Source: Parcubacteria group bacterium (GTDB taxonomy: Bacteria > Patescibacteriota > Minisyncoccia > Phycocordibacterales > Phycocordibacteraceae). From it: DNA of 64,000 nucleotides. This document shows, in pieces, positions 4,765 through 63,094 of the stretch. Location: contig JAQBRG010000004.1 of the NCBI GenBank assembly GCA_028286615.1, forward strand, positions 36,480 through 100,479, given 5' to 3'. Each line of letters opens with the position of its first letter. The stretch's first letter is position 1. The notes below the pieces were generated by a model. It did no database searches. It saw nothing but the letters and a program-made list of their open reading frames with translations, and was not told the origin of the DNA. A program made the translations under genes and the position numbers.

Positions 4765-4852
4765 GTAAAGACCTCTTTATGACAGGTTGTCATTCTGGGC
4801 AAAGAATACTCCCGTGTTCCGGGGGTGGCCAAATGTATAAAAACTCTGTGTA

Positions 4853-5593
4853 CTATGCTCTCTTCCCCCTCTTCCACTTCTTTCCCGTGTGTAGAAATGG
4901 GGCAAAGAGATCGTCGTTAAGTGCAACAACCAGTGGTTCAGGTTTCTGTTTTCTTTCTGTAAACGTAACCTGCGTTGCGTTTCGTATAACGGCTATAGGT
5001 GTCTGCTGGTTTCCTTCTCCCATTTCAAGCACCGCAGCAACCGCAAGCGCGTCTGCGATATTCGCAACTTCCATTTGAAATGGGCGCCCGAATATATCCG
5101 GAGTATCTTTATACGATTGCAGTGGTTCGAACCCGTCCCAGGACAATGCGAATCCAACTGCACCTCGGCGCAGAGGAAGACTAATGGAGTCGGTTATAAC
5201 AACACCGAGTTGTTTGATGCCGTATTCCCTCTTAAGCCAATTGCGTAACCGTCTCGCGCTTTGCATTGGATCTTTGGGATACAGAATGTAGTGCCCGTTT
5301 CCGTTGCTTTCATCTATACCTGAAGCTCCCGCGAGTGCTCCCGCTGAAATGGTATAGAGCTTTTTATACTTGGCCCGGGGAAACTCAATGTATCGCTCTG
5401 CCTCCTGTCTCTTAAGCTTCTCTTTATCTATTCCCTCCATAGGAAGACAGATGCCTTCGTCTATAGAAACAACTTTGGAAGAGATAGCTACAATGTCTCC
5501 TTCTTTCAACTGCATCCTCGATGCCTTAATGGCTTCAAGAAGATTGTCCTTGGGAGGAAGAAGCTTTCGGAGTTTGTACGCAGTTACTTGCAT
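4853..5593 (-). CDS. CofE-like (F420-0:gamma-glutamyl ligase family) protein
   Basis: GDIVAISSKVVSIDEG ... GVVITDS motif pattern; 246 aa. Confidence 0.4.
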   Translation of the reverse strand: MQVTAYKLRKLLPPKDNLLEAIKASRMQLKEGDIVAISSKVVSIDEGICLPMEGIDKEKLKRQEAERYIEFPRAKYKKLYTISAGALAGASGIDESNGNGHYILYPKDPMQSARRLRNWLKREYGIKQLGVVITDSISLPLRRGAVGFALSWDGFEPLQSYKDTPDIFGRPFQMEVANIADALAVAAVLEMGEGNQQTPIAVIRNATQVTFTERKQKPEPLVVALNDDLFAPFLHTGKKWKRGKRA

Positions 5594-31187: not shown

Positions 31188-31233
31188 CCCAAAAGAAAAA
31201 GCGCCCGTTTCCTTCCGAAGAAGAGAAACGAGC
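31188..31233 (-). terminator. long imperfect hairpin (14-bp stem) downstream of the GC-rich gene
   Basis: aaagcgcccgtttc ... gaaacgagcgcttt. Confidence 0.45.
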
Positions 31234-31256
31234 GCTTTGAAGTTGTCCTTGCCGCT

Positions 31257-31844
31257 CTAGCAGAGCAGGCGAGGATCGCGATGGCAGGCATCAGCCCAGT
31301 CGCCAGGGCGCGGACCCGTGGGCCAGCTGCCGTAGCTGCGGCCGTAGGAGCCGCGATGACTGCCGATGTTCGCGACCCGATCCAGCAGGTCGACGACACG
31401 GTTGGCTTGCTCGATTCTGTCGTACCGCGGCGCCTGACCTTGCGGGGAGGAGCCGTAGCCGTACTGAACAGAGGCGGTCTGGCATTCGCGGTATCCGCGA
31501 TTGTTCTGGTAGCAGTCGGAGCTGGAGACGTCGACAGGACGGTTGTCCTGGAAACGTTCTTCCTGCCGTTGCTCCGGGTGCGGTTGCTGGACCGTAAGGC
31601 CCCGCGACGTCGCCTCGGCGCGCGGCAAGTACCTGCAGCCGACGAGTTGCCCGCCGGACTGCCGGCAGAGCCAGACGTGGTCCGGCTTGGGCTCGGCGGT
31701 GCTGCCGTCGGGGCCTCGCAGGAGAACCGGGGCTTCGGCCTTCGGAGAAGGCTTGGCGGCCGGGGCTTGCTTGGCAGTGGCGGCGAAGGCGGGCGAAACG
31801 GTGATGGCCATGGAAAGAGCGGCCAAAAGGGTGAGGAATCTCAT
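31257..31844 (-). CDS. secreted Gly/Arg/Tyr-rich protein encoded in a GC-rich island
   Basis: AAAGGAG SD then ATG; signal peptide MRFLTLLAALSMAITVSPAFAATA. Local GC about 65-70% against about 48% in the flanks. Overlapping ORFs appear in all frames, as expected for high-GC sequence. Confidence 0.55.
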   Translation of the reverse strand: MRFLTLLAALSMAITVSPAFAATAKQAPAAKPSPKAEAPVLLRGPDGSTAEPKPDHVWLCRQSGGQLVGCRYLPRAEATSRGLTVQQPHPEQRQEERFQDNRPVDVSSSDCYQNNRGYRECQTASVQYGYGSSPQGQAPRYDRIEQANRVVDLLDRVANIGSHRGSYGRSYGSWPTGPRPGDWADACHRDPRLLC

Positions 31845-31935
31845 GGGAATCTCCTTTGTTGGTCCCAGATGAAGCTGTATATAAGGTACCAGAATATACG
31901 GTATTTGTCAATAGCTTCCCTTTCTCGGTGCTATT

Positions 31936-33612
31936 ATGGGCCTTATGCCTGCTCATTTTGATACGGACGCCGAAGATAAGCAGCTTGCGGGTATCCGTGA
32001 GCGCGAAGAGGAAGACCTGGCCCAGGTGCTTTCCCAGAAATACGGCTATACCTATACCGATTTAACGGCCATTCCCGTTAACGTAGACGCGCTGCGTATG
32101 ATTCCCGAGAAAGAGGCTCGAGAGGCTGAAGTTGTAGCATTTGATAAGAATGGAAAGCATATTTCTATAGCTCTCCGGAATCCCCAGAATGAGCTTCTTC
32201 CTCAGGTTGAACATGCTCTTGAAGCTCAAGGATTAATCCTTTCTCGTTTCCTTATATCCCGTAAAAGTCTCGAGAAGGCACTTGCTCGATACGAGGAATT
32301 CTCGTACGCCAATCAAAGCAAGACTGGCGTATTCGCAGTTGAAGGAGCTCAACTTGAAGCTCTTTCAAAAGAACTCAGTAGCGTAACCGTAGTGCGGGCC
32401 AAGCTTGATCAGATGTTGGACACGAAGAATGTGCAGGTCTCTCATGTGTTTGAGCTCGTGCTTGCGGGCGCATTTTCTATGCGAGCGTCCGACATACACT
32501 TCGAGCCTGAAGAAGAGACAGTACGTCTTCGCTACCGTCTTGATGGACAACTAACGGATGTCTACGCGTTCTCTCAACATACATACCAACTCATAGCCTC
32601 ACGCATAAAACTTATCTCGGGTCTTAAGTTGAATGTGCATGGGCGGGCGCAGGACGGGCGCTTCTCAGTTCCTCGCCAAGGTACTGAAGTTGAAATTCGC
32701 ACCTCACTCATTCCAGGAGCGTACGGAGAATCTTTTGTTATGCGTCTTCTTGATCCTTCTATCCTTGGTGTTGGCTTCAAGGAGCTTGGTGTCCATCCGA
32801 AGCTGCTCGAGCGTCTTGAACGAGAGATTACTCGTCCTAACGGCATGCTTCTTACAACCGGACCTACGGGTTCAGGAAAGACGACGACTCTCTATTCTTT
32901 CCTGCAGCATATTCACACTCCCGAAATTAAGATTGTTACCATCGAAGACCCTGTTGAATACCATCTTCCCGGTATTGTGCAGACGCAGACAGATGGAAAA
33001 GAATATACATTCGCATCAGGTCTTCGTTCAGTACTTCGTCAGGACCCGGATGTAATCATGGTTGGAGAAATTCGAGACTCAGAAGTTGCTGAAACTGCTA
33101 TTCAAGCAGCTCTCACAGGACACTTCGTATTCTCGACACTTCACACCAACAACGCAGCGGGCACTTTCCCACGTCTTGTAGACCTTGGGTCTGATCCTAA
33201 GGCATTTGCTTCAGCAATTTCTGTGGCTATGGCGCAGCGTCTTGTTCGTACCTTGGATCCTGAGGCCCGCAAACAAGTTCCTGCAACTGAAGAAGAGAAG
33301 AAGGTTATGGAAAGAATTCTATCAACGCTTGAGGACATGACTCTCCTTCCCTCTTCCCTTGAGACTGTGTGGGTTCCTGAGCCAAATGAAACAAGCTCTG
33401 GGTACAAAGGACGTATTGGTCTCTACGAAGCAATCTTTATGGACGAGGAGCTAGGCAACTTGCTTCGAGACAATCCAAGTGAAGGCGAGATCGCAACGAA
33501 TGTACGTCGCCAAGGTTTCCTAACCGTGGCGCAGGACGGTGTGCTCAAAGCTATTGCAGGACAAACCTCACTTGAAGAGGTGTTTAAGGTTGTTGATTTG
33601 CCTCGAGACTAG
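31936..33612 (+). CDS. pilB: type IV pilus assembly ATPase PilB (GspE family)
   Basis: Walker A TGPTGSGKTT, Asp box, Walker B MVGEIRD, His box; 558 aa. Confidence 0.9.
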   Translation: MGLMPAHFDTDAEDKQLAGIREREEEDLAQVLSQKYGYTYTDLTAIPVNVDALRMIPEKEAREAEVVAFDKNGKHISIALRNPQNELLPQVEHALEAQGLILSRFLISRKSLEKALARYEEFSYANQSKTGVFAVEGAQLEALSKELSSVTVVRAKLDQMLDTKNVQVSHVFELVLAGAFSMRASDIHFEPEEETVRLRYRLDGQLTDVYAFSQHTYQLIASRIKLISGLKLNVHGRAQDGRFSVPRQGTEVEIRTSLIPGAYGESFVMRLLDPSILGVGFKELGVHPKLLERLEREITRPNGMLLTTGPTGSGKTTTLYSFLQHIHTPEIKIVTIEDPVEYHLPGIVQTQTDGKEYTFASGLRSVLRQDPDVIMVGEIRDSEVAETAIQAALTGHFVFSTLHTNNAAGTFPRLVDLGSDPKAFASAISVAMAQRLVRTLDPEARKQVPATEEEKKVMERILSTLEDMTLLPSSLETVWVPEPNETSSGYKGRIGLYEAIFMDEELGNLLRDNPSEGEIATNVRRQGFLTVAQDGVLKAIAGQTSLEEVFKVVDLPRD

Positions 33613-34209
33613 TTAGGCGAGTCCTCGCGCTTGGCGTTCTTTGAGGAATGCATCTGCTCTTTTTTGAAGCACTCTTTCTCGCTCACTGAGCAGTTTGCTG
33701 TCCTCGTGGTACTTAGCAACAGCTTCTTGAACCTCAGAACTAAATAGTCTTAATGAGCGACTCTCCCCGAAGTTACTCGTCGTGCTTGGATTAGAATCTT
33801 GAACAAGCACACTTAGAACAGATGGATCTGAACCAAATCCTTTCTGCTCGGAAAGTAAATGCTCGATATTTTTTATACTAGAAAGAACATCTGGAGCCAT
33901 TCCGTCTTTCTCTGAACTTAGTTTCTGAAACTCTTCTTCTGCCTTTGCTGAAAAGTTACTGTTCTTGAAAGCTTTATAATTTTCTGATCTCTCGGTTGTT
34001 AATTCCGTATCTTTCTCCCAGTTTGCAGTGGCGGCAGCTTCAAGTTCCTCATGCGAAAGAGTCGAGAGGTCTCCATCTCCTACCTCATTACCTAAATTCT
34101 CTGCGACAGCTCCTTGAATAGCTCTAGCGTCTGACTTTATCTCTTCAGGACGTAGGCTTCTTGCCTGGTCTGCGTCTCTGCTTTTGAATGAAGAATTTTC
34201 AATGCCCAT
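33613..34209 (-). CDS. hypothetical protein (low complexity, charged)
   Basis: 198-aa ORF. Confidence 0.45.
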   Translation of the reverse strand: MGIENSSFKSRDADQARSLRPEEIKSDARAIQGAVAENLGNEVGDGDLSTLSHEELEAAATANWEKDTELTTERSENYKAFKNSNFSAKAEEEFQKLSSEKDGMAPDVLSSIKNIEHLLSEQKGFGSDPSVLSVLVQDSNPSTTSNFGESRSLRLFSSEVQEAVAKYHEDSKLLSERERVLQKRADAFLKERQARGLA

Positions 34210-34337
34210 AGGATAGTCGTAAGTGGTATGTAGAAATCATACCAGTTTGCTCGGAAATTGTGACTAGGACTTGCTTCGTTATTAGCTTTTTGATTTAATG
34301 GGTCCACGGGCTCACATGAGTCCATTTTCGGGGCAAC

Positions 34338-34375
34338 CCGCGACCCGCGCAGAAATGCGCGGGGTTTATTTTTTA
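34338..34375 (+). terminator. plus-strand rho-independent terminator inside the ORF-poor region
   Basis: gacccgcgc-agaaat-gcgcggggtttattttttat. Confidence 0.55.
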
Positions 34376-34418
34376 TCATCCCGGGATGCCTGCAACACGG
34401 GGATAAGATAAATATGAA

Positions 34419-34501
34419 AAAATCCCGCGCATAACCCTCCAGGCACTCCTTTCTAGAACTTAGAAAGGTGAACAGAATCGCCTGGGGAGACTCCCAGCGC
34501 A
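34419..34501 (+). repeat. 83-bp direct repeat, copy 1
   Basis: Identical over 83 bp to 35559..35641: aaaatcccgcgcataaccctccaggcactcctttctagaacttagaaaggtgaacagaatcgcctggggagactcccagcgca. Confidence 0.9.
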
Positions 34502-34544
34502 TGCGCTAACTGTAAGTACACTCTGTAGACAGACCCCTCTTTGT

Positions 34545-34580
34545 CCCCAGCAGGGGTTTCGCCAGAAACCCCTGCTGGGG
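34545..34580. repeat. perfect 18-bp palindromic hairpin (ccccagcaggggtttc-gcca-gaaacccctgctgggg)
   Basis: Seen directly in the sequence. No T-tract on either side, so it is not a terminator. Confidence 0.85.
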
Positions 34581-35558
34581 GAAGTAATTAAAGCCGTACT
34601 TTAACGGTTCCAGGAATTGAAGGAGTATATTCGCGGTATTCCATATTCATATTCGTATTAACCCTTATCTCCTCCCTGCCCCAGATAACTGTGGTGAGTA
34701 AGAGGAGAAACCACGTAGCAAGTATCAATACAGAAAGCTTAAACCAGTGCTTTTTAAGACTGGTTGGGATGTATGGTTCAGACATGATCTAAAAGTAAGA
34801 GGTTGTTAACGAGTGCACCGCCCCAAATTATGGCTCCCGACAACCTCTTACAGAAGCGAGAACCGTTTGAGACGGTGCATTCGTAAGAGGTTGAGATATG
34901 GGGCGTGTAGGGAAAGGCTAGCGTCCACACGGAAGTGAGTCGAGGTATTTTGAGTTATCCACTTTCTTATGATTCTGCATTTACGTTATACTGGTGAGGT
35001 TCAGGTGTGAAAGCACTTGAGCCCACGAGCGAAGTCTTCAGCCGAAGTTAAGCAAGAGCCTAAGAACACTACTTAACTTTCAAGACCCCAGGAGCATACT
35101 CCACGGCTGAAGGAAGATCCTTCGCCCGTGGAATGTGCTTCTGGGTTTTTGTTTAATTGGTTCCCATCAGTTCCTTGCTAGTTAGAAATTGGTGGGGGCA
35201 AGTTAGATGTAGTATGTAAATACTACACGCCGCCCCCCGCTTCGCACGGCCTGAAAGCGACGTTGGTGAAATGGTCAAAGACTCTGAAGTACACAACAAC
35301 GATGTGGAAGCGTGCCGACAACGGCCGCATCCCGACACCTGCGTTTAGACAAACTCACCCTGAGATTGTCTACAAGCAGACAGTAGTAAAGCGAACTGCC
35401 GCTCCCAAAAGAAGCAGCAGTTCGAAGTAAAAAGTCACGAAACTTTTAACCACATTGGACCCCGCGAGGGGTCTTTTGTGATTTCTATCATTCTATCCTT
35501 GAACTCAAGGTGAAGAGGCACATCTTAAGGTGGATAACGGTAGAGCGTCAAGTAAATC

Positions 35559-35641
35559 AAAATCCCGCGCATAACCCTCCAGGCACTCCTTTCTAGAACT
35601 TAGAAAGGTGAACAGAATCGCCTGGGGAGACTCCCAGCGCA
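35559..35641 (+). repeat. 83-bp direct repeat, copy 2
   Basis: Identical to copy 1. Its 5' 20 nt can pair with ggagggttatatgcgggatt at 35705..35724. Confidence 0.9.
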
Positions 35642-35820
35642 CCACATCAAGTGTGGTACCAAGAGGTCCCTGGGGAAGCGCCCTAAAGCCGTCAAGCCTT
35701 GTCTGGAGGGTTATATGCGGGATTCGTAGTTCGAATCTAAAAAAAGAAAATACCTTCTGCGGAGAAGGTACGTACAGAGCCAACCTCTGATGTGCTAGAA
35801 TGGTAGCATAGTGCAATCTT

Positions 35821-36801
35821 ATGTCAAGTACCCCTGATCCAGTCAAGATAAGAGACCAGGCGCTCGATTCAGCGCTCCGCCCTACTCTGTGGGACGAGTA
35901 CATAGGCCAAGGACACGTGAAGGCCAATGTGCAGGTGGTATTGTCCGCGGCCAAAAAGCGTGGAGACATGCCGGAGCACCTTCTTTTCTACGGACCTCCA
36001 GGTGTTGGAAAGACAACGCTCGCCCATCTTGTGGCCGCTTCTCTTGATGCCCCCCTTAAGACAACTTCCGGTGTTGCTATTGAACGCGCGGGAGACTTGG
36101 CTGCTATTCTAACGAACCTTGAACCTGGTACCGTCCTATTTATAGACGAGATACACCAGCTCTCTTCAAAGATTGAGGAGCTCCTCTACCCTGCCCTTGA
36201 GTCTGGCTCGCTAGATATTATTCTAGGCAAAGGACCTTCAGCTCGTACCGTTGAGCTCGCTCTCCCTCCGTTTACTCTTGTTGGTGCAACCACACGCGTG
36301 TCCCAACTCTCCGCTCCTCTTCGTTCCCGTTTTGGAGGAGGTGTGTATCAGCTCGACTTTTATACAGACGAAGACCTCCGCAGTATTATTCGCCGCTCAG
36401 CAGGAGTGCTCGGTCTTTCCGCTAACGACGAGGTTATAGAACGTATCGCATCGCGAAGCCGCGCAACACCTCGTGTTGCCAATGCTCTTCTAAAGCGTGT
36501 TCGGGATTATTCAGAGGTGCATGAGAGAGAACTCTCAGCAGAAGTGTGTGACCTCGCGTGTGAATTGTTTGGTATCGATTCTCTTGGACTAACCAAAGAC
36601 GACAGGCGTTACCTAGAAACTATCCGAGACTCATTTAAAGGAGGGCCGGCCGGTATTCGTGCGCTTGCTTCTGGACTCCATGAAGATCCTGAGACCGTTG
36701 AGAACGTGTACGAACCGTATCTCTTACGTATTGGTTTTATTGAACGCTCTCCACGTGGACGCATCCTCACGCAGAAAGGAAGAGACTATTTGAGTGCGTA
36801 G
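35821..36801 (+). CDS. ruvB: Holliday junction DNA helicase RuvB
   Basis: LLFYGPPGVGKTTLAHLVA ... LFIDEIHQL ... AAA+ sensor motifs. Confidence 0.95.
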   Translation: MSSTPDPVKIRDQALDSALRPTLWDEYIGQGHVKANVQVVLSAAKKRGDMPEHLLFYGPPGVGKTTLAHLVAASLDAPLKTTSGVAIERAGDLAAILTNLEPGTVLFIDEIHQLSSKIEELLYPALESGSLDIILGKGPSARTVELALPPFTLVGATTRVSQLSAPLRSRFGGGVYQLDFYTDEDLRSIIRRSAGVLGLSANDEVIERIASRSRATPRVANALLKRVRDYSEVHERELSAEVCDLACELFGIDSLGLTKDDRRYLETIRDSFKGGPAGIRALASGLHEDPETVENVYEPYLLRIGFIERSPRGRILTQKGRDYLSA

Positions 36802-50246: not shown

Positions 50247-52067
50247 CTATACGCCCGCAGACTCCTGTCGTTGTTTTTCTTGTTTAATGGCGAGTAGCTG
50301 CGAAGGGTCTGAGGTTATGATCTGATCCTCGGTGTATGACGCAACGATCTTGATAGCCACATGCTTAAGACCCGCAAAGAAAAGTCCCTCCCCCACTCCA
50401 GACTCAAGGAGCAAGAACTTCTCCTCGTCGGTTAGGTTGAATGTTTCCTGCAGAACATTAATAGTTGTCGGAGATTGCTTAAGAAGAAGCTGCATCGAAG
50501 AGTTTGTAAGAATCGGTTTGCCGTATGGACTACGCAAGAAGTCCTCAACGTCCTGAGTTATGGTTGCGAGTCCGAGGTAGTACTTACGTCCGCGCTTAGC
50601 AAGACTGTAGAGGAATGACGCAGTGTCTTCTGCTTTCATCATCCACCACGCCTCGTCAATGATCATAAGGCGCTTCTTGAGTTCGTGACGGACTTCGTTC
50701 CAGATGAAGTGCATGATGATATACATCGCTACAGGCTTGAGCTCGTCTTCCATGTCGCGCACTGAGAACACAACAAACTGTTTCTTAATATCAACGTTTG
50801 TTGGCTGGTTAAGGAACCCAGACCAAGTACCGTGCGTGTATTTTGAGAGCCTAGTTACTAGGGATTCTGAGCCCTCCATACCTGAAAGGACATTCTCAAA
50901 GTCTGAAAGAAGAGGAGGCTCTACACCTGTGAAGTCGTTGTCGCCGGTTATGTCTTTAAGTGCGTACGTCTCTGTTACTGCGCGATCTACAATGGCGTCC
51001 TCCTCTGGAGAAAGACCCCCAAGCATGATGCGGAAGAGTCCCACGAGGTTAATGATGTTTGAACGGAGAATGTCAGCCGGCTCCTCGTCTTCTTTAACAG
51101 GAGGCAGGTCAAACGGATTGATATGGTGTTCGCTTGAAAGAGAAATGTTGAAGGTACGTCCGCCTGCTGCTTCAGCGAGTTGGGTGTATTCGTCTTCAGG
51201 GTCTATAACAATAACGTCGGTATCGAACATGAGGGAGCGAAGAATCTCGAGCTTAACAGCATAAGACTTTCCCGAACCAGATTTAGCAAACACAACGGAG
51301 TTGTAGTTCTCAAGCGAGAAGCGATCGAAGAGAATGAGTGAAGAGTTGTGGCGGTTAATGCCGTAGAGAATGCCATGGTCGCTCGTGAGGTCGAAAGATA
51401 CGAATGGGAAGATAGATGAAAGCGGAGACGAGTTCATTTTGCTGTTAACAGCAAGTTCGTCGAGCGCAAGAGGAAGTGTTGAACGGAATCCTTGTTCTTG
51501 CTGGAAGAGTGCGGGCTTGGTGTATACAAGCTTCGCGTCGAGAATACCTCGTATCTCCCCTTCCACCTTGTCGAGTATCTCCTTAGAGTCTCCGTATATG
51601 GTTATGTACAGACCAACTTCGAAGAGTCTTTCCTGTGCTTGCTGGAGCTGGTCACGAAGGTTCTCAAGATCTTGGTATGCAGTATCAAGCATCGGGTCAC
51701 GCACAAGCCCCTTCTCTTCTCGTGTTTGTATCTGGCTTTGAATTTCGGCAACTTTCTTCTGGAAGCCACGAAGTGCGGGGCCTGTTTCAAGCGGATGAAT
51801 GAAGATGGCAACATCGAATACCTTGTCGAGGTTAATTATTGGCGTAAACCAACCATCAGCAAGGAAGCGCGGGTATGAAATGGTGTAGAAAGTACGGGAA
51901 AACTTCTCCCCGAGCTCTATCTCTTTAGATCCAATCTTAAGAGCCGCAGGAGCTATGGCGTCAGCAAGCTGAAGCTCCCCTTCCGCGTATATATCTCGAG
52001 GAAGTACAGCAGCCACTCTTGGCTCTGCTTCATCTTTTTTCTTACCGAGGAAATCAAGGAGTGCCAT
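50247..52067 (-). CDS. VirB4/TrbE-like T4SS ATPase, C-terminal ATPase portion
   Basis: Walker A VFAKSGSGKSY, Walker B MIIDEAWWMM, GRKYYLGLATITQD motif C. Starts 1 codon after an in-frame TAA that ends the upstream fragment. Confidence 0.65.
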   Translation of the reverse strand: MALLDFLGKKKDEAEPRVAAVLPRDIYAEGELQLADAIAPAALKIGSKEIELGEKFSRTFYTISYPRFLADGWFTPIINLDKVFDVAIFIHPLETGPALRGFQKKVAEIQSQIQTREEKGLVRDPMLDTAYQDLENLRDQLQQAQERLFEVGLYITIYGDSKEILDKVEGEIRGILDAKLVYTKPALFQQEQGFRSTLPLALDELAVNSKMNSSPLSSIFPFVSFDLTSDHGILYGINRHNSSLILFDRFSLENYNSVVFAKSGSGKSYAVKLEILRSLMFDTDVIVIDPEDEYTQLAEAAGGRTFNISLSSEHHINPFDLPPVKEDEEPADILRSNIINLVGLFRIMLGGLSPEEDAIVDRAVTETYALKDITGDNDFTGVEPPLLSDFENVLSGMEGSESLVTRLSKYTHGTWSGFLNQPTNVDIKKQFVVFSVRDMEDELKPVAMYIIMHFIWNEVRHELKKRLMIIDEAWWMMKAEDTASFLYSLAKRGRKYYLGLATITQDVEDFLRSPYGKPILTNSSMQLLLKQSPTTINVLQETFNLTDEEKFLLLESGVGEGLFFAGLKHVAIKIVASYTEDQIITSDPSQLLAIKQEKQRQESAGV

Positions 52068-52070
52068 ATC

Positions 52071-52703
52071 TTAGGAATTTGTTAAAGGAATAGGAGTTTC
52101 TACATCTCCCAGATTGAACGAATGGTACAAAAGTTCGATTATCTCTTCAGTACCAAGCGGAACTGCACGTACTCCTGCCGAAGCGAGACCTCCAGCGGCT
52201 AGTGCCATACGTTGCTCGAGCTGCACGCGGTGTTCGTTAAATGAGTCCTCCCCAGGTGTTTCTGAAGTGCTCTTCCTTCCAATGAAAGGAATATTACCCG
52301 CAACTTCGTTCGCTATTGCGGGAGCGTATGGGATAACGAGATAGAAAATCTTCGTCATGATGTCAGTAGTTTCAAGAAAGCTCTTGATGAACTGCATGTA
52401 TTCGCGAAGCTGTAGACGCATAAGATCAGAGGTCTGAAACGCCATGCGCTCCTGCAAGAGTGCAAGATACGGACGAATATCCATGCGACGTGAATGGGCA
52501 ACGATTTCAACAGAGAAATCGAGCGTGTTAAGGAAGTTCTGGAACCCGCCAACAATGGCTCGCTGCTCGTCTTCAGACTTAAGCGCGAAGTTAACGGAAG
52601 AACACATAAGAATGCCTCTATACCCGTCGTCTTTAAGAATAACTACGCCATTGCGTACTTCTTTAACCGGCACGAATGCTTGTGTTGCTTTAGGTGCAGC
52701 CAT
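52071..52703 (-). CDS. VirB4-like N-terminal domain fragment
   Basis: VPVKEVRNGVVILKDDGYRGILMCSSVNFALKSEDEQRAIVGGFQNFLNTL matches the conserved N-terminal block of VirB4/TrbE. Same reading frame as 50247..52067. Confidence 0.5.
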   Translation of the reverse strand: MAAPKATQAFVPVKEVRNGVVILKDDGYRGILMCSSVNFALKSEDEQRAIVGGFQNFLNTLDFSVEIVAHSRRMDIRPYLALLQERMAFQTSDLMRLQLREYMQFIKSFLETTDIMTKIFYLVIPYAPAIANEVAGNIPFIGRKSTSETPGEDSFNEHRVQLEQRMALAAGGLASAGVRAVPLGTEEIIELLYHSFNLGDVETPIPLTNS

Positions 52704-52704
52704 A

Positions 52705-53121
52705 TTACTCAGTTGGGGTTTGTTGATCCTTAATGTCTAGAGACCAAGCTAATTCCTCAAGCTTCCCGCGGGTTAGGCCAAGCTTTTGGCGAACCGGTTC
52801 AGCAGCAGGAGTTGCTACAGGCATTGAAGATTTGTTTGATTGCATTTCTTTTTTCCAAAGGTAGAGGCGACCTCCTATGTAGTATTTAAAGCCTGCCTCA
52901 AGAATGTCCGCAAAGGTCTTGTTGTTAATCTTGTAGAACGCGAGAGCACCAGCAAGAGCTGCTACGGGAATTGCGAGAATAATACCAAGAAGACGTGGAA
53001 GATAGAGGACAAGAACGGCACAAAGCCCTGCTCCGCCAGCTATGTAAATGAATTGCTTCAACGTAAACGGGCCGAATATTTTGTCTTCAACCTCGATAAA
53101 TTGAGGAACTTGGTACTCCAT
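52705..53121 (-). CDS. PrgI/VirB3-like small membrane protein
   Basis: PQFIEVEDKIFGPFTLKQFIYIAG followed by TM helices, immediately upstream of the VirB4-like gene. Confidence 0.45.
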   Translation of the reverse strand: MEYQVPQFIEVEDKIFGPFTLKQFIYIAGGAGLCAVLVLYLPRLLGIILAIPVAALAGALAFYKINNKTFADILEAGFKYYIGGRLYLWKKEMQSNKSSMPVATPAAEPVRQKLGLTRGKLEELAWSLDIKDQQTPTE

Positions 53122-53166
53122 TGCTGATAAGTATACCAGCTACTTATTACTTCTATTATGAATTCC

Positions 53167-54066
53167 CTACTCAACAGGCTCTCTGTAAGGATCAGTGCCG
53201 TAGTTTTTCATATCAGGAGCCTTCCTGAATGGAGAAGCGGAAGGCACTGGAGTATGAGGTAGATTTAAAGGAATCGGCACGTATTCTTCTTGGAACGCAC
53301 GTTTTGGAGCCTCCGGTACTTCTGGTGTTGTGTTTGCTAGTGGATTGATACCATTTTTAAGCATCTCCATGTCTTTTGCCATGGTGCGCATTTCCCTGTG
53401 TTCAGGTTGCGACACGGAGACGTCAGGTGGCTGTGTAGTAGGAGTCTCTGCTTTTGGAATTGGCGCGGACCACGTTACCGGTACTTCGACAGGCTTGCCT
53501 TCAGGCACGAGCTCTGAAGACCCAGGAAGTGTTACTGGCAAAGCCGGAGCAGGCTGAATAATTGGTGCTAGCGCCTGATGCGGCGCTGAATTTATAACGT
53601 TAATTGGCGAAGGAATTGATGACGCAGGCACAGGAAGTGCGACGGGAGCCGGTGCGACTGGTAGCGATGGGGGCGGAACAAGCGCAGGGACTGGCAAAGG
53701 ATCAGGTTTTTGAGGCTGTGTCTGAATAGGTTGTGGAGGCTGCGGCTCACGAACACCGTCTCTTTCGGCTTTCCTTAATGGCGTAAAGACTTCTCGGTTC
53801 ACGTCGGCGACAATTGCTGTAACTGTAGCAGGGTCCAACTGCATCGCATTGAGAGACTCAACAAAGGTTTCAGGAGTCTCCTGTCCTAAAAGCATTAGCA
53901 ATAGCTCACGTTCCAGTGCCCCGCCCTGGTCAATGTGGAGAGAGTACCTCTCCATAATGGCGTGTGCCGTATCAGGCAGATCGTTAAGAATGAAGTCGCG
54001 CACAGGGAACGGCACCTTAGCTATAAGGCTTGAGATGCTTTGTTCTAGAGCCAGATTCTCATCCAT
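53167..54066 (-). CDS. proline-rich hypothetical protein
   Basis: Long proline-rich low-complexity middle region. Confidence 0.4.
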   Translation of the reverse strand: MDENLALEQSISSLIAKVPFPVRDFILNDLPDTAHAIMERYSLHIDQGGALERELLLMLLGQETPETFVESLNAMQLDPATVTAIVADVNREVFTPLRKAERDGVREPQPPQPIQTQPQKPDPLPVPALVPPPSLPVAPAPVALPVPASSIPSPINVINSAPHQALAPIIQPAPALPVTLPGSSELVPEGKPVEVPVTWSAPIPKAETPTTQPPDVSVSQPEHREMRTMAKDMEMLKNGINPLANTTPEVPEAPKRAFQEEYVPIPLNLPHTPVPSASPFRKAPDMKNYGTDPYREPVE

Positions 54067-54071
54067 ACTTT

Positions 54072-56534
54072 CTAAGTGTGTGGAGCAGCACCATGAGCGT
54101 CACCTCCTGCTGGTGCGCCGGCAGGAGCGTGCGCCGGCGCTGCTGGCGCGTCTTCCTCATCATCCTTTTCAGCTGCCTTCTTGATTTTTGCCAGAGCTTG
54201 ATCAAGATCGCTACCCTTGCCCTTACGAATATTCGCCGCTGCTTCATGGTCGGCATGGTTTCCAACCGATCCAGGAAGGTATACATTTCCATGCAGGCCT
54301 TCAAGGTATGTATCAGTCTTCTGTTGCTCAGCTCGATTGCTCCATGCCTTTAACCTGACTTCAAGCTCTTTCTGTTGTGCTGCCAAACGCTTACCATCAG
54401 CGTCTCCTTCTATAATCTCGTCACCGATCTTTACGTCAGCACCATTCAAACGATCGTACTCAGTTGTTCGTCGCTTGAGTTCCTCACGTGCACGCTCAAG
54501 ACCCGCCTTATCGTTTGCAAGACGTGCTTTCTGCACCTTTACACGTTGCTCCTCAATAAGGTTTAGCTGATCGGCCAAATGCTCCGCGCGCCGCTTCTTA
54601 ACTTCAATTAGCTCCTCCTCTACCTCGGTTGCAACGCCTCGCTGCTTCTCGCTTGGTTTGAGGGTCTTCTTTAGGAAGTCCTCTCGGTCCTTAACTGCCT
54701 TCTCCTCAATACCATGGAAACCGTGTGCCGCAGTCTTGTTTGCTTGGCCAAAATCCAACTTAACTTTTCCATTTTTTCCAGCAGCCGTTGCCAGATTTCG
54801 TGCGCTATAGCTCGCAGTAGCCCCCTTGTTTGCGAAATTGTATGCAAGTCTTGCCTGTCCCGGATGATTCTGTGCCCACTCAGAAGTTCTAATGCGCTGC
54901 GCCACTGAATTTGATGCTGCTCCAAGAGTTCGTCTCCCAAGGAATCCATAGGTACCAAGAGCGAGACCTCCTGCTGTTTTCGTTGCATAACCTGCCCCTG
55001 CAGCCCCCAGCTTGGTTGCAGCCATTAAAGACGCAACCATGAATCCAATAACAATAAGAAATATCAATACAACCTGCATATTTCCTGCCACACCATTTCC
55101 TTGCAGAAGAGCATCTGCAAGCGAGGCTTTTCCTTGCATGAGCCCCTCAGTCAACTTGAGACTGATGAAAATGAGAAGGAGATATACAGGAGCAAAGAAT
55201 GACTGAGAAATTAGGGCCTTCCACCAGCTTTTCGCCATTTCTGAAAAGGCGGGTATTGCCATACCCGCGAATCCAATAGGAGATGTGACCATCAAGAGAG
55301 ACAGAACAACCACACGAATGACGAGCATAATCGCGCCCGCCAGGAGTACAACGGCTGTAATAGTTACGAAAATACTCAGACATAGGAGAAAGATTGTATA
55401 TGAGTAGGGCTGCTGGCTTATATTTTTCCACTCATCTCCGAAAGCCGAGCCAATAGTTGAAAGACTAAAAATCTTATCCATGCCCGCGGCATGCATTACG
55501 GCTCCCGCAATACCAACTTGAGAGCAGGCCTCGGGACTTTGGCCCGCAATACAATTCTGTCCAGCTTGTGCGGTAAACACCGACGCAAAGCCATTTGCCA
55601 CATCTATAACAGCCTGTGATGCAAACAAGCTAAAGTTAAGAAGAACAGCAAAAATAATGAGGCCGGGGAGCGCTTTCTTTGCGGTATACCCCTCAACAGC
55701 ACCTGTATTCAAGATGGTTGCAATGCCCATAAATATGAAACCAAAGAGCAGCACAATGTTTCCAATGTCTCGAAGCACTCCCCATGCAATAAGCGTACCC
55801 GCTGAACTTCCGAAGTACGTTCCAAATTCAAACACGGTTCGTATAACTACCCAGTTAAATACAGCTCCTGAGATAGCTAGAAGTATGCCCGAGATACCCA
55901 GAACAATAAGTGCCAGGAAAGAAAAGATGACGCCTGGAATGTTTAAGACACACTGAACAAGATTTGTTATGGAACAACTCTTAAACGCGGCAGCTTGAGT
56001 CTCCGCGCCAGCCAGGTCTTTATCAGCCGCCACCCCACTTGAAGTTTCAACCAAAGGCGTGCCTCCCGTTGCCTGACTTCTGCCGATTGTTTTTCCGGTC
56101 GCGTCATAGAATTGATAACTACTGCTCTCACCAGATACAGCGAGACGACTCTTGTCTGAAGCTACGATATTACATGTGCCTTTGCGAAGAGTTCCCTGAC
56201 TGTCAATCTCAGTTGCTGCGACACAGGTAACACCATAATTCTTGCCACCTGCCGTCAATGTTTTATTGCAGTTCTTTTGAAACGACTGGCTTAGAAGTTC
56301 TGTTGCGGGTGATGTCTTAGTCTCACCGAAACATCCAGACACTAAACTGTCGATATCAGAATTTTGAAGACTAGCAATGATCGCTGTTGTCGACTGGGCG
56401 TGGGCTGCCTGAGGAATTAAAGAGACTGTTCCAAAGAACGAAAATACTACGATAACGCACATGCCAGTAAAGGCACTTTTAAAAAGTGCTTTCGCGTCCA
56501 CTCGTTCGTGTTGAGTACGTCGGAGTGTCTGCAT
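54072..56534 (-). CDS. VirB6/TrbL-like polytopic membrane protein with C-terminal coiled-coil/charged domain
   Basis: Signal peptide, large extracytoplasmic region, then many TM helices, then a charged coiled-coil tail; 820 aa. Confidence 0.45.
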   Translation of the reverse strand: MQTLRRTQHERVDAKALFKSAFTGMCVIVVFSFFGTVSLIPQAAHAQSTTAIIASLQNSDIDSLVSGCFGETKTSPATELLSQSFQKNCNKTLTAGGKNYGVTCVAATEIDSQGTLRKGTCNIVASDKSRLAVSGESSSYQFYDATGKTIGRSQATGGTPLVETSSGVAADKDLAGAETQAAAFKSCSITNLVQCVLNIPGVIFSFLALIVLGISGILLAISGAVFNWVVIRTVFEFGTYFGSSAGTLIAWGVLRDIGNIVLLFGFIFMGIATILNTGAVEGYTAKKALPGLIIFAVLLNFSLFASQAVIDVANGFASVFTAQAGQNCIAGQSPEACSQVGIAGAVMHAAGMDKIFSLSTIGSAFGDEWKNISQQPYSYTIFLLCLSIFVTITAVVLLAGAIMLVIRVVVLSLLMVTSPIGFAGMAIPAFSEMAKSWWKALISQSFFAPVYLLLIFISLKLTEGLMQGKASLADALLQGNGVAGNMQVVLIFLIVIGFMVASLMAATKLGAAGAGYATKTAGGLALGTYGFLGRRTLGAASNSVAQRIRTSEWAQNHPGQARLAYNFANKGATASYSARNLATAAGKNGKVKLDFGQANKTAAHGFHGIEEKAVKDREDFLKKTLKPSEKQRGVATEVEEELIEVKKRRAEHLADQLNLIEEQRVKVQKARLANDKAGLERAREELKRRTTEYDRLNGADVKIGDEIIEGDADGKRLAAQQKELEVRLKAWSNRAEQQKTDTYLEGLHGNVYLPGSVGNHADHEAAANIRKGKGSDLDQALAKIKKAAEKDDEEDAPAAPAHAPAGAPAGGDAHGAAPHT

Positions 56535-56538
56535 ATAG

Positions 56539-57939
56539 CTAGTTTATAACGCAGCTTACCGAAAGCTGGCTCAGCTGAGATAGCAACGAATCAGTACCCG
56601 CTGATGCTTGTGATTCTGACTCTGCAACTTCAGTAGGTGTTGGGAGAATGTCTGAGTTCGGCCCGTCAAAACCCTGGAAGTCTTCAGACAATTTGTTTAG
56701 ATCAGCAAGCTTGCCACCAGTTGCAATTGCGCTTTTCGCTTGAGATTGAAGCTTGCCAAGTTCGGCCGTGGCATTAGCTGCTTTAACTAGTGCGGCAGAA
56801 GCGCTATTGAGTGCGGGCTGCACAATGGTACTTATCGCCTGCGTGTTGTTTCGACTAGAACATGCACTAAGTGCCTGCTGCCCCGCCGCTTGTATACGCT
56901 GCCAGTTACTTTGGTAATTACTTACCTGACCCAATTCTTCAGTAATTGTTTGAAGGAATGCCTGAGAAAGACTGGCACTCTGCGTATTCGATGCGTTTGT
57001 AAGGTTGTCTGCGTATGAACTGCCTCCTCCTGTAGAAGGTTTGGATAACCCTGCAATGCCACCTTTGCTAAAGGCTTCATTTAGCAGATTGAGTATAGGA
57101 GCACTCGCAAACTCACTGACCTCATCAGCACTGACGGTCTTGTCTATACCCGCACCGAGAGTATGTACAAGGGTGTCGTGAAGTACTGATCCGTTAATTA
57201 TGATTGGCGAATTGGGACACTCCTTGGATGAACCTAAGGAGACATCTCCTGAAGATCCACACGTCCCGTGGTATGAACCGATTCCCTGTCCCCAGTTAAT
57301 TTCTGTAAGCCTGTTCCCCTCCGCGTTTCCTACGCTGCCTTCAAACGCTTGCTGGGTAAGAAGTGTAGAACCATAAGGATTATTCTGTGGATTCATAAAG
57401 CTCGAGAATAGAGCATCAAGGCCTCCTTTGGAGAAGTCTCCGTTTGTGAATGCGGCCGGGTCTGAACTGACTTGATCAAGGGTAAAAGGATTTTGGTTAA
57501 AGACACCGCCTGCACCTGTAGAGCGGTAACGATACTCTCGGAGGTTTTGGCTTAAGTCGTCTCTCCATGGAGATTTAACACTGTTACTCGATTCAAGCTC
57601 TTTCAAAAACGCCTCAGCTTGCGCGTCCCCAACAGAAAGCATGGTCTTGTTAATGTCAGTTACAAAAGCAGGAGAACCATCAAAACCAGAGTTCACAAAG
57701 TTAATCATGCTCTTGTTAAGAGACTGAAGAGCAGAAATACTTTGAATCCAGGCAAGACGGTCGCTTGTAAGCTCTTTAAAAATACCTTTATTTTCAAGAG
57801 CCGCACTCAGTGCATTCTTTACAAGGTTAACTGGGTCAAGAACTGTCTGATACGCCTCTGTTCGTGCGGGCATGGCTGTTAACCCTATACCTAATGCAAG
57901 GGTGAAGACCAAACAAGTTTTTAAGAAGGAGATTTTCAT
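56539..57939 (-). CDS. secreted hypothetical protein
   Basis: Signal peptide; 466 aa. Confidence 0.45.
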   Translation of the reverse strand: MKISFLKTCLVFTLALGIGLTAMPARTEAYQTVLDPVNLVKNALSAALENKGIFKELTSDRLAWIQSISALQSLNKSMINFVNSGFDGSPAFVTDINKTMLSVGDAQAEAFLKELESSNSVKSPWRDDLSQNLREYRYRSTGAGGVFNQNPFTLDQVSSDPAAFTNGDFSKGGLDALFSSFMNPQNNPYGSTLLTQQAFEGSVGNAEGNRLTEINWGQGIGSYHGTCGSSGDVSLGSSKECPNSPIIINGSVLHDTLVHTLGAGIDKTVSADEVSEFASAPILNLLNEAFSKGGIAGLSKPSTGGGSSYADNLTNASNTQSASLSQAFLQTITEELGQVSNYQSNWQRIQAAGQQALSACSSRNNTQAISTIVQPALNSASAALVKAANATAELGKLQSQAKSAIATGGKLADLNKLSEDFQGFDGPNSDILPTPTEVAESESQASAGTDSLLSQLSQLSVSCVIN

Positions 57940-58970
57940 GGTTGTTCATTAGCGACGGCGTCTGCTGCACGTTTAGCAACTTGAACAATAGATGCGCCAG
58001 AAGTTCCGTCTGGGATGTTTGCGCCAACTGCATCAAATACTCCGTTAAGGTTTGCGAATGCGCGTCCAAGATTCGCTCCCCTCTCTTGGTACATTCCAAT
58101 TCCGAAGACTGCTAGAACAGGATCAGTTTTTGTTGCAGCCATGTCAGCCGTTGTCTCACTCATATGCATAAGCGCATTCGCAATTGAAAGATGGGCGTTG
58201 CGTGCTTCGGAAGGAACAGAAAGTTTCATAGCTGCTCGTGCGATGGCTGCGTATGATTTGCTAATTGCAAAAAGTTTCGTGATGGCAGACGAGTCATTCT
58301 TGCTAACCGCGTCTGAGAAATATTCGAGATCCGTTTTGTCCGTAGGGACTGTGTATGTTGCAAAGACCTGCTCAAGATTTGCCGCATAGGTTGCAAGCGC
58401 ATCTGCGCCGCTTCCTCCTGCAACGATGTCCGAAGTGCTATACGTATCCGTTTCAATTTCTTCTGCTTTAAAACTCTGAAGTCCTTGTTCTACGAATGCG
58501 CTTAACTCGGCGGGAGTTGGAGGTGTTGGGCCACGAGTCTTTAGATATTGCGTAAGGAGGCTACGAGCGAATCTGTCTGTAACAGTCGTTGGACCCGCAT
58601 TTACGCCAGGAACGGGGGTATTAACAAGTGAAGTGGAGGTCGCGGTTAATACTTTTGGTTTAACCAGCCCTTGGGAAACAGCGTCTCCATCCTTAGTTCC
58701 CTTCCGCACAGATTCAGGATTGTTTGGATCTGTTCCGTACAACGCTTCTTGCCAATCTGGAAGCTGGTCTCCATCAGTATCTTTTGCTGCGTAACTCTTA
58801 AGGAGTTCTGCAGAAGATTCTGCATCAGCTACATTTGTCTTTCCAAGAAATGGAATTGGTCCCGATGTTGCGTATGCTCCGCCAACAAGGACAACCGCAA
58901 TTACTGATGCGATGATTATGCTAACGGTGCGAGGAGAAGAACCAGCCATATGTTTCCATAATAATAGCAC
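57936..58970 (-). CDS. membrane-anchored hypothetical protein
   Basis: N-terminal TM segment; 344 aa. Confidence 0.45.
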   Translation of the reverse strand: MLLLWKHMAGSSPRTVSIIIASVIAVVLVGGAYATSGPIPFLGKTNVADAESSAELLKSYAAKDTDGDQLPDWQEALYGTDPNNPESVRKGTKDGDAVSQGLVKPKVLTATSTSLVNTPVPGVNAGPTTVTDRFARSLLTQYLKTRGPTPPTPAELSAFVEQGLQSFKAEEIETDTYSTSDIVAGGSGADALATYAANLEQVFATYTVPTDKTDLEYFSDAVSKNDSSAITKLFAISKSYAAIARAAMKLSVPSEARNAHLSIANALMHMSETTADMAATKTDPVLAVFGIGMYQERGANLGRAFANLNGVFDAVGANIPDGTSGASIVQVAKRAADAVANEQP

Positions 58971-61909: not shown

Positions 61910-63037
61910 GTGTCTTCGGGACAGAATGCATACTGGATTCCTGGCGCCGTAATCGCCGCAAGCCTACTTCTTGGGATAGGAATCGCCCTAACACCGCACT
62001 CTGCAGGTGCTTTCTGGCCATTTTCTGTAACAAACGCCGCTTCTGGTGTTGATTCTCCTATTATTCATGACAGCAGCATCGATCTTTTGGATGCTGCAAC
62101 CAATTCGGATCCCAATCCAAGCAAGGGAGAGGGCTCCATTGCCATGACTGAGGGATCTGCCCTTATCTCAAACGCGGGTCCTGAGGGAACGGTTTCTGAC
62201 GCAGATCATGGCTCTTCTGGTCAAATTAGTACGTACGTAGTGCGTGATGGGGACTCAATCTCAGAGATTGCAGACACTTTTAACGTTTCTGTTAGTACCA
62301 TCCTTTGGGCAAACGGCCTTACAGCCAAGAGTGCCATTAACCCAGGCATGAAACTGGTTATCCTCCCTGTCTCAGGTGTCAGGCATACTGTTGCTAAGGG
62401 CGAGACGCTTGCGGGTATTGCAAAGAAATATGGCGCAGATACTAGCGATATCGGTTCTTACAACGGCGTGGACGAGGATGCCTCTGTTGCTGTAGGCGAC
62501 GTGCTTATAATTCCTGGTGGAGAAATACAAGCTGCGGCAACAACCAAGGCCAAGACTTCTACAACTAAAACAGCCGCTAAGAGCACCATTAAGACCGGAG
62601 GCAGTCTCTCATCAGTACAGTCAAACCCATTCAAGGGAGGATCTGGCGCTGCTCTTCCTGGATACTTTGGAAATCCTGTTCCGGGCGGACGCCTAACCCA
62701 GGGAGTACACGGCTGGAATGGTGTTGATATAGGCGCTCCTTCAGGTACCCCAGTGTACGCCGCAGCTGCTGGAACCGTTATTGTCTCTCGTGTAGGTGGC
62801 TGGAACGGAGGATACGGCAACTATGTGGTTATAGACCATGGTAACGGCACTCAAAGCCTCTACGCGCACCTCTCAGCAGACAGTGTTTCCGTTGGCGAAA
62901 CAGTAAGCAAGGGTGAAACTGTCGGTTCTGTGGGCAAGACAGGAGAAGCAACAGGTTTCCATCTCCACTTTGAAGTCCGAGGTGCAAAGAACCCATTTGC
63001 AGGCTGTGCGGCTATGAGTTTCTGTAGCCCAGAATAA
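61910..63037 (+). CDS. LysM-domain M23 peptidase
   Basis: Two LysM repeats (YVVRDGDSISEIA..., HTVAKGETLAGIA...), then an M23 HxxxD ... HLHFE zinc motif. Confidence 0.85.
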   Translation: MSSGQNAYWIPGAVIAASLLLGIGIALTPHSAGAFWPFSVTNAASGVDSPIIHDSSIDLLDAATNSDPNPSKGEGSIAMTEGSALISNAGPEGTVSDADHGSSGQISTYVVRDGDSISEIADTFNVSVSTILWANGLTAKSAINPGMKLVILPVSGVRHTVAKGETLAGIAKKYGADTSDIGSYNGVDEDASVAVGDVLIIPGGEIQAAATTKAKTSTTKTAAKSTIKTGGSLSSVQSNPFKGGSGAALPGYFGNPVPGGRLTQGVHGWNGVDIGAPSGTPVYAAAAGTVIVSRVGGWNGGYGNYVVIDHGNGTQSLYAHLSADSVSVGETVSKGETVGSVGKTGEATGFHLHFEVRGAKNPFAGCAAMSFCSPE

Positions 63038-63094
63038 GCTTTGGTAAAGCAAAACGGCCCTCTAGAGAGGGCCGTTTTGCTTTACCTTCCAATA

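Follow-up and report, generated by a model that had tools for sequence, protein, structure and literature searches.

We identified a gene for a conserved, structured small RNA directly upstream of ruvB in a 64-kb stretch of DNA from a metagenome-assembled genome of the Parcubacteria group (contig JAQBRG010000004.1; hereafter the window, to whose full length all positions refer), together with an 83-bp direct repeat and an insert that separates the two repeat copies. We are highly confident in the existence of the RNA gene and in the repeat being its 3' half. We also consider it probable that a small element without an integrase, or the remnant of one, sits in the 3' end of the RNA gene as a result of Campbell-type integration, which would explain the arrangement in full. 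The stretch lies between a gene for a GspE/PilB-type ATPase (pilB; 31936-33612, plus strand; Pfam T2SSE) and ruvB (35821-36801, plus strand), and its two open reading frames (ORFs) correspond to the NCBI hypothetical proteins JWN64_531 and JWN64_532, both on the same 186-kb contig. The organism is also present in sequencing run SRR13312974. An initial annotation, made from the letters alone, had proposed either one large structured RNA of 1.6 kb or a non-coding insertion. The best reading of the region is a composite of the RNA gene and the repeat with its insert, on top of which we infer a mechanism.

The RNA gene became apparent in a comparison of ruvB neighbourhoods from related genomes, a set of approximately 37 Patescibacteria records that are labelled Paceibacteria, Kaiserbacteria, Zambryskibacteria or Parcubacteria, with RuvB identities of 59-88%. 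When window positions 33501-36000 were searched against these loci by blastn, only two parts of the intergenic region were conserved: the last ~100 bp of pilB, and 35559-35725, which consists of repeat copy 2 and its 3' pairing partner. The second part shares 68-80% identity with its counterparts in relatives, where it lies directly upstream of ruvB in divergent orientation and, in many cases (e.g. loci L005, L006, L012, L016 and L028), 10-50 bp after the end of pilB. Conservation thus leaves about 165 nt of the 1.6-kb RNA that had been proposed. The long-range helix that the initial annotation had drawn between copy 2 and a downstream strand is real, and forms the closing helix (P1) of the RNA. 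Its two 25-nt arms (35561-35585 and 35700-35724) are 88% complementary, with 22 of 25 positions paired, and the 201-nt stretch around it folds at −80 kcal/mol (z = −5.7).

Relatives provide strong covariation for 35559-35725. In a structure-blind MAFFT alignment of 35 sequences, 94.8% of the cells were paired and 34 of the 52 pairs had changed on both sides. All five covariation measures lay above those of every one of 500 shuffles (0/500 reached the observed values), and pairing fell to 38-50% in slid controls in which the partners were shifted by one to three columns. Read 5' to 3', the RNA begins with a U-rich lead, P1 (22-24 bp) and an invariant AAGGCUUGACGGCUU segment that is able to fold as a mini-hairpin of 4-5 bp. 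Next come a long irregular arm, whose internal loops are conserved and whose apical hairpin varies, and a 6-bp hairpin that covaries; the 3' arm of P1 and a U-tail (35562-35559) complete the RNA. The minus-strand core GGCTTGACGGCTT is invariant across the 35 aligned sequences, while the helices flanking it vary yet keep pairing. Of the local hairpins that had been placed inside the long-range helix, those formed by cctttctag/tagaaagg and ccaca/tgtgg are real helices of the small RNA, whereas the gattcg/cgaatc hairpin has no comparative support. The intact window copy has all helices paired, with one non-pair in P1 and none in the long arm.

We built a covariance model (R1) from the same alignment. 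R1 found exactly one full copy per locus in 36 related loci, always beside ruvB and scoring 102-170 bits, as well as a weaker copy in locus L037; it found no copy in the ruvB loci of other phyla. The window match (35557-35726, minus strand, model positions 1-166) includes P1, the invariant GGCUUGACGGCUU segment, the long arm and the 3' hairpin; its score of 145.8 bits is partly by construction, the window sequence being a seed member. One further homologue of the RNA was found in a metagenome contig with a scan pattern that had a fixed 12-nt gap.

Rfam 15 yielded no family match, either at the gathering score on the whole window or at E ≤ 10 on 34100-35900, and at E ≤ 10 the consensus-like relative L028 gave only hairpin-type noise, as did the window. 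Among the classes without a match at this threshold were GOLLD, ROOL, OLE, HEARO, raiA, RNase P, transfer-messenger RNA (tmRNA), signal recognition particle (SRP) RNA and group I and II introns, in agreement with the initial annotation, which had recognized no RNase P, tmRNA, SRP or group II consensus by eye. ARAGORN and Rfam found no tRNA or tmRNA in 34100-35900. A resemblance to SRP or RNase P RNA on the plus strand (GGUCC..GGAAGC and AGAAAGUCC) was dropped, as no model matched and the RNA lies on the other strand. At the level of sequence comparison, a conserved RNA family that is absent from Rfam 15 is well supported.

We assign the RNA to the minus strand, and not to the plus strand on which it had initially been folded, because four independent lines of evidence agree, in addition to the minus-strand U-run that follows the 3' arm of P1 in most sequences. 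Within P1, plus-strand C·A and A·C cells, which are G·U wobbles on the minus strand, number 77 against 22 plus-strand G·T cells, and typical P1 columns read UG/UA/CG on the minus strand. The minus strand was the more stable in 34 of the 35 sequences (mean −75.8 versus −62.5 kcal/mol; Wilcoxon p = 2e-10), the window sequence being the sole near-tie. RNAalifold gave −60.5 kcal/mol and 52 pairs for the minus strand, compared with −29.9 kcal/mol and 33 pairs for the plus strand. An apical UUCG loop is found on the minus strand in 14 of the 35 sequences, with UCCG or CUUG in several others, and on the plus strand in none. The comparisons establish a small RNA that is predicted to be transcribed divergently from ruvB and to end in the closing helix followed by a U-run.

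A block between the RNA gene and ruvB, TG-N-TAGAAT-GCTAGCA, is kept in relatives (L002-L039) and has the form of an extended −10 element whichever strand is read; in the shortest relatives, the predicted minus-strand start is located ~10 nt before P1. The block provides ruvB with a promoter of its own, which excludes the conserved element as a leader of ruvB. In the window, the minus-strand −35 element (TTGACA) overlaps the ruvB start codon, and back-to-back overlapping promoters of this kind could potentially couple the expression of ruvB and the RNA. An extra hairpin upstream of the RNA gene (Table 1) has counterparts at the same relative position in approximately half of the relatives (L002, L004-L007, L010, L003, L036, L011, L013, L016, L020, L029, L034 and L038), with sequences that differ between subgroups. 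Together with the U-run, it resembles an intrinsic terminator ahead of the RNA gene, and might serve as an insulator, as a leader or attenuator, or to stabilise the 5' end.

The direct repeat described in the initial annotation is exact, with 83 of 83 positions identical between 34419-34501 and 35559-35641. The copies are spaced 1,140 bp from start to start, with 1,057 bp separating them, and are the only two in the 64-kb window, where none would be expected by chance. Identity breaks off sharply at both ends, and the sequences beyond them share no residual similarity. With the minus-strand assignment, the 83 bp correspond to RNA nucleotides ~85-167. Their inner boundary is located exactly where the apical hairpin has its base, and their outer boundary lies at the RNA 3' end, after the four U residues of the tail. 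Copy 2 supplies the intact gene with the 3' sides of both the long arm and P1, with the 3' hairpin between them, and with the terminal UUUU. Copy 1 gives a weak partial R1 match (34417-34571, 23-34 bits), and its similarity to relatives is due solely to the duplication of a portion of the conserved element; beyond it, in the minus-strand direction, comes a longer U-run of the kind that is typical of the native 3' flank in relatives. In the direction of the RNA, the order is therefore the intact gene, 1,057 bp unique to this genome, and an orphan 3' half-gene. The R1 search found no second RNA fragment like copy 1 in any sampled relative, and a third, degenerate attachment (att) copy was searched for near pilB and not found. 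A competition of the two copies for one pairing strand, as had been suggested, lacks comparative support, the second copy being present in the window only. The initial annotation had argued against a diversity-generating retroelement, and we concur: the repeats are identical, and the region's ORFs have no match to a reverse transcriptase or other domain.

The region is rich in hairpins compared with shuffled sequence, as had been noted, with four clusters at z of −4 to −9 in 120-nt windows and values of ~0 in the coding regions of pilB and ruvB on either side. The segment between the repeats is missing from relatives, as the earlier suggestion of an insertion with duplicated flanks implied, and blastn and tblastn searches with it against 38 related loci and the rest of the window revealed no similarity. 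It matched nothing in phage and plasmid collections, its ORFs had no significant match in Pfam or PHROGs, and the insert had none in Rfam. A metagenome scan with its palindrome found nothing, and probing viral contigs with the core of the RNA, with the att-like segment of the window or with a degenerate motif for the 3' half gave chance matches only. No terminal inverted repeats are present at its ends. Decayed coding sequence was rejected, as a six-frame tblastn of 33613-35558 against more than 80 loci and the rest of the window met only the organism's own contigs. The insert is not conserved, and there is therefore no demonstrable RNA family in it and nothing to show that it is one single RNA.

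The description of the region as poor in ORFs holds in part. The minus-strand ORFs that translate the repeat (34137-34502 and 35505-35969) score as non-coding, whereas a 65-amino acid ORF within the insert looks like a gene: its codon usage score, 0.14 per codon, is within the range of real genes and above that of 99% of shadow ORFs. The protein has no family match and no homologue among 5.8 billion clusters except itself. It is possible that this ORF is the cargo of the insert. Just downstream of it on the minus strand sits the palindrome that had been reported as 18 bp, which does form a perfect hairpin, with arms of 16 nt. Directly upstream lies a segment (34796-34905) in which GTAAGAGGTTG occurs twice, around CAACCTCTTAC, and CACCGCCCCA pairs with TGGGGCGTG, so that the pairings are mutually exclusive. 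The nested GC-clamped hairpin that had been described around 35195-35245 is visible in the sequence. A by-eye likeness of a second, 55-amino acid ORF to an AlpA/excisionase helix-turn-helix was not supported by Pfam, PHROGs or PDB sequence searches, and the likeness of GCGCATAA to a dif/Xer site was judged coincidental, as it is not conserved in relatives.

Table 1. Positions of the RNA gene, the repeat copies, the insert and neighbouring features in the window (aa, amino acids).
Feature	Position	Strand	Remarks
Structured small RNA gene, ~165 nt	35559-35725	-	R1 model, covariation, strand tests
Repeat copy 2	35559-35641	-	3' half of intact RNA gene
Repeat copy 1	34419-34501	-	Orphan 3' half of RNA gene (att-like), without 5' partner
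Lineage-specific insert	34502-35558	.	Structure-rich, no detectable homologue
Structure-rich clusters	34481-34640, 34761-34960, 35041-35200, 35281-35480		z-scores
Palindromic hairpin	34545-34580	.	Perfect 16-nt arms, 4-nt loop; z ~ −4.5 to −4.9
65-aa ORF	34588-34785	-	JWN64_532, one predicted transmembrane stretch
Alternative-pairing segment	34796-34905	.	z −3.3 to −4.8, both strands
Long imperfect hairpin then T-run, terminator-like	35084-35150	+	z = −8.8; Rfam gave hairpin-type alignments only
Doubtful 55-aa basic ORF	35263-35430	+	Codon score borderline, 0.01; no family match
Terminator-like hairpin then T-run	35457-35474/35484	+	Downstream of doubtful 55-aa basic ORF
Sigma-70-like promoter, TTGACG-18-TAAGAT	35522-35551	-	Consensus match only; right end of insert, pointing inwards
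Extra hairpin	35750-35771	-	Between promoter block and U-run preceding P1
Back-to-back promoter block	35791-35827	both	Plus, TGcTAGAAT (ruvB); minus, TTGACA-16-TGcTACCAT (35827 to 35800, RNA side)
Left flank beyond repeats	33613-34418	-	198-aa gene, promoter-like site, terminator-like hairpin
Orphan 198-aa gene	33613-34209	-	JWN64_531; codon score 0.205, coding-like
Promoter-like site of 198-aa gene	34264-34236	-	
Terminator-like hairpin then T-run	34344-34363 (with T-run to 34375)	+	

In the integration that we favour, a small circular DNA would have brought in a copy of the last 83 nt of the RNA as an attP-like segment, and recombined with the chromosomal RNA gene in a Campbell-type single crossover, which could have been either homologous or site-specific with a recombinase acting in trans. 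One junction would thereby rebuild the complete RNA gene, and the other would keep the displaced 3' fragment. Because the element has no recombinase of its own, it would be a mini-element that is not autonomous, or else what remains of a larger element, with a cargo that may comprise the gene for the 65-amino acid membrane peptide amid highly structured RNA. The 806 bp to the left of copy 1 were presumably in place before the event. In relatives, the end of pilB leads straight to the RNA gene or unrelated genes occupy the gap, and none carries the 1,057 bp. That the identity block stops at the RNA 3' end is what one would predict for incoming DNA that had merely to make the gene whole again. 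The longer, native-like U-run after copy 1 fits as well, as does the pairing of the intact copy, which is as good as in any relative; the idea that the intact gene is visibly a mis-paired chimera was rejected on this ground.

Several observations weigh against this integration. Searches of Pfam, PHROGs and PDB found no integrase, excisionase or recognizable mobile-element gene in the insert or nearby, and a crude pattern search found no recombinase motif in the ORFs of the window. The insert was not found elsewhere, free or in another genome, in the collections searched. Among the sampled loci, the duplication occurs in this one genome only, and recurrent use of the site by elements is therefore not demonstrated. 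Transcription of the RNA is itself a prediction. The spacer between pilB and the RNA gene is plastic in the clade, ranging from 0 to ~1.3 kb, and the variable genes found there in relatives (amine oxidase, TerC/DUF475, Ham1, GGACT, a Panacea-domain protein and orphans) are ordinary single genes without att-like repeats, so that plasticity alone is no proof of site-specific integration. Finally, the order of the segments across the 83-bp repeat depends on the source assembly. In the independent Logan k=31 assembly of SRR13312974, three contigs each end 30 nt inside the repeat, and one of these (L083; 1,117 bp) is the insert with 30-nt overlaps at both ends; this graph fits the integrated order and an empty site plus a 1,140-bp circle equally.

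As an observation on the spacer itself, the spot between pilB and the RNA gene is a hot spot of single-gene gain and loss, and in locus L020 it holds a gene for a SocA/Panacea-domain antitoxin-like protein (4793-5365, minus strand).

The alternative that best survives these data, although we regard it as unlikely, involves no mobile element. Foreign or rearranged DNA would have entered through homology-facilitated or illegitimate recombination (e.g. in natural transformation), or arisen through a replication error, with the 83 bp duplicated as a by-product and the insert consisting of small genes or small RNAs (sRNAs) gained at a plastic intergenic spot. This would be in keeping with the unrelated single genes that relatives carry in the same spacer without an integrase or att-like repeats, and with an insert that has no recombinase. 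However, a single-anchor illegitimate event alone gives no direct repeat, and random duplication does not predict an outer repeat boundary exactly at the functional 3' end of the RNA, nor is it suggested by a repeat whose identity is perfect and sharply bounded.

It is rather improbable that the arrangement reflects an ambiguity of the assembly graph or a mixture within the population, such that the RNA gene is intact and without insert, and the 1,057 bp plus one repeat copy form a separate 1,140-bp circle or are present in only part of the population. The Logan contig breaks are compatible with both arrangements, and a perfectly identical repeat has the appearance of a collapsed graph node. 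Nevertheless, the source record is the 186-kb NCBI contig, and its assembler probably worked with k-mers or read pairs that exceed 83 bp, which would have resolved the path. A 1.14-kb replicon without a replication gene is also implausible, save as a transient excision product, which would still imply an integrating element. The earlier reading, a single plus-strand structured RNA of ~1.6 kb or a riboswitch-like device with competing copies, has a negligible chance of being correct: the region is indeed ORF-poor and significantly structured on both strands, and the helix between copy 2 and 35700-35724 is real, but the other 1.4 kb have no equivalent in the 36 relatives, what is conserved has the features of a minus-strand RNA and matches no large-RNA family, the competing second copy is absent from all relatives, and the promoter region of the 198-amino acid gene occupies the left 200 bp.

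The left flank of copy 1 is lineage-specific and missing in relatives, yet it lies beyond the repeats. Its 198-amino acid protein has no homologue among 5.8 billion clusters, and its ORF gave the sole Pfam or PHROGs match below E = 0.1 among all ORFs of the region, a marginal one to phrog_4994 (function unassigned; E = 0.0017). The plus-strand terminator that had been noted here was recovered as a terminator-like site. It consists of CCCGCGCA-gaaa-TGCGCGGG and a T-run, with no plus-strand gene upstream in the window, and shares 86% identity over 51 nt with positions 7775-7825 of L028, which lie downstream of ruvB in that locus. The 3' half of this hairpin also shows 88% complementarity, over 16 nt, to the end of repeat copy 1.

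Three further features of the window lie outside this region. The interval 31200-31950, between tsaE and pilB, is GC-rich (0.65-0.69 versus ~0.48 elsewhere) and has long ORFs on both strands (195 amino acids on the minus and 226 on the plus strand), neither with a Pfam match; it may be foreign DNA or an unusual gene. At 62941-63085 (plus strand), Rfam reports STnc70, an enterobacterial sRNA, at 42 bits against a gathering score of 40; the match overlaps the 3' end of an ORF for an M23/LysM peptidase and, given that the genome is from Patescibacteria, is in all likelihood a false positive. A cluster of large genes at 50247-58970 (minus strand), including one for a TraG-type P-loop ATPase (50247-52067) and one for an 820-amino acid protein without a Pfam match, resembles a type IV secretion or DNA-transfer apparatus and could possibly be relevant to the entry of foreign DNA.

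Patescibacteria, also known as the candidate phyla radiation (CPR), have tiny genomes in which non-coding RNAs and mobile elements are poorly charted. The RNA family described here comes with a ready covariance model and a fixed address beside ruvB, and can be searched for across CPR genomes. The locus also holds a lesson for annotation, in that "empty" hairpin-rich gaps in CPR genomes may conceal an RNA gene in antisense orientation together with an insertion, and that folding only the strand of the neighbouring genes misleads. If the integration was site-specific, the attachment site would be a small-RNA gene that encodes neither a tRNA nor a tmRNA, with a 1-kb, integrase-less occupant, which island finders keyed to tRNA/tmRNA genes and integrases would miss. 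A wider proposal, which we put forward tentatively and think more likely wrong than right by a good way, is that the RNA is an unrecognized housekeeping RNA of Paceibacteria-type Patescibacteria, such as a missing 6S-like polymerase regulator, and that its 3' end is an attachment site for tiny integrase-less elements. If this were true, the strategy of integrating into an RNA gene and rebuilding it would extend past tRNA and tmRNA genes, and CPR genomes would carry mobile DNA of a kind that current tools overlook.

According to the part of PMC9897764 that cites Williams (2002) and Islander, islands and prophages insert into the 3' part of tRNA and tmRNA genes and are flanked by attL/attR direct repeats. 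The arrangement in the window is alike in that the duplicated block is the 3' portion of a gene and stops at the gene end, and in that the target gene is complete again after insertion while a displaced 3' fragment is left behind. As in such islands, a direct repeat is present, here 83/83 with one full and one partial R1 match, and the element is missing at the same site in 38 related loci. It differs in its target, an uncatalogued small RNA gene that encodes neither a tRNA nor a tmRNA, in the small size of the element (1,057 bp), which encodes no integrase, and in the length of the 83-bp identity block; unlike those islands, it has neither a known excision product nor a known second occurrence.

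Cis-mobilisable elements (CIMEs) of streptococci are non-autonomous, att-flanked elements that are mobilised in trans. The insert resembles them as a short piece of DNA between att-type direct repeats without recombination genes of its own. The parallel goes no further than this, as no cognate autonomous element or recombinase was identified in this genome or clade, and mobilisation in trans would be pure inference here. As for the cargo alone, the 65-amino acid single-helix peptide ORF with its heavily structured 5' region, and plus-strand terminator-like hairpins placed such that a plus-strand RNA would be antisense to the 5' region of the ORF (34588-35150), are reminiscent of a type I toxin-antitoxin module. 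This likeness is speculation: the peptide has no homology to known toxin families, and the transcripts are predicted.

Our working guess for the RNA itself is a trans-acting housekeeping or regulatory RNA, possibly a 6S-like binder of RNA polymerase, although we consider a 6S-like role a minority possibility. Our literature searches on 6S RNA in Patescibacteria or CPR found nothing relevant. 6S RNA is ~160-200 nt long (~160 nt in Aquifex) and mostly base-paired, its closing stem and terminal stem being separated by an unpaired bubble in the centre; 6S and Ms1 RNAs bind RNA polymerase, and keep synteny within a clade without sequence similarity across clades (PMC9130861). Polymerase binding and the synthesis of product RNAs (pRNAs) are known for 6S RNA, whereas the present RNA is known from its sequence. 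It also differs from 6S RNA in that neither the window RNA nor that of L028 matches Rfam RF00013 at E ≤ 10, and in that its centre is a multi-branch junction, with a covarying hairpin on the 3' side and a possible mini-hairpin of 4-5 bp on the 5' side. In some respects the two are alike. At ~165 nt, the RNA is near the lower end of the 6S range, it has a long closing helix and a long second arm around a conserved non-helical centre and, like 6S and Ms1, it is restricted to its clade in sequence and fixed in its synteny.

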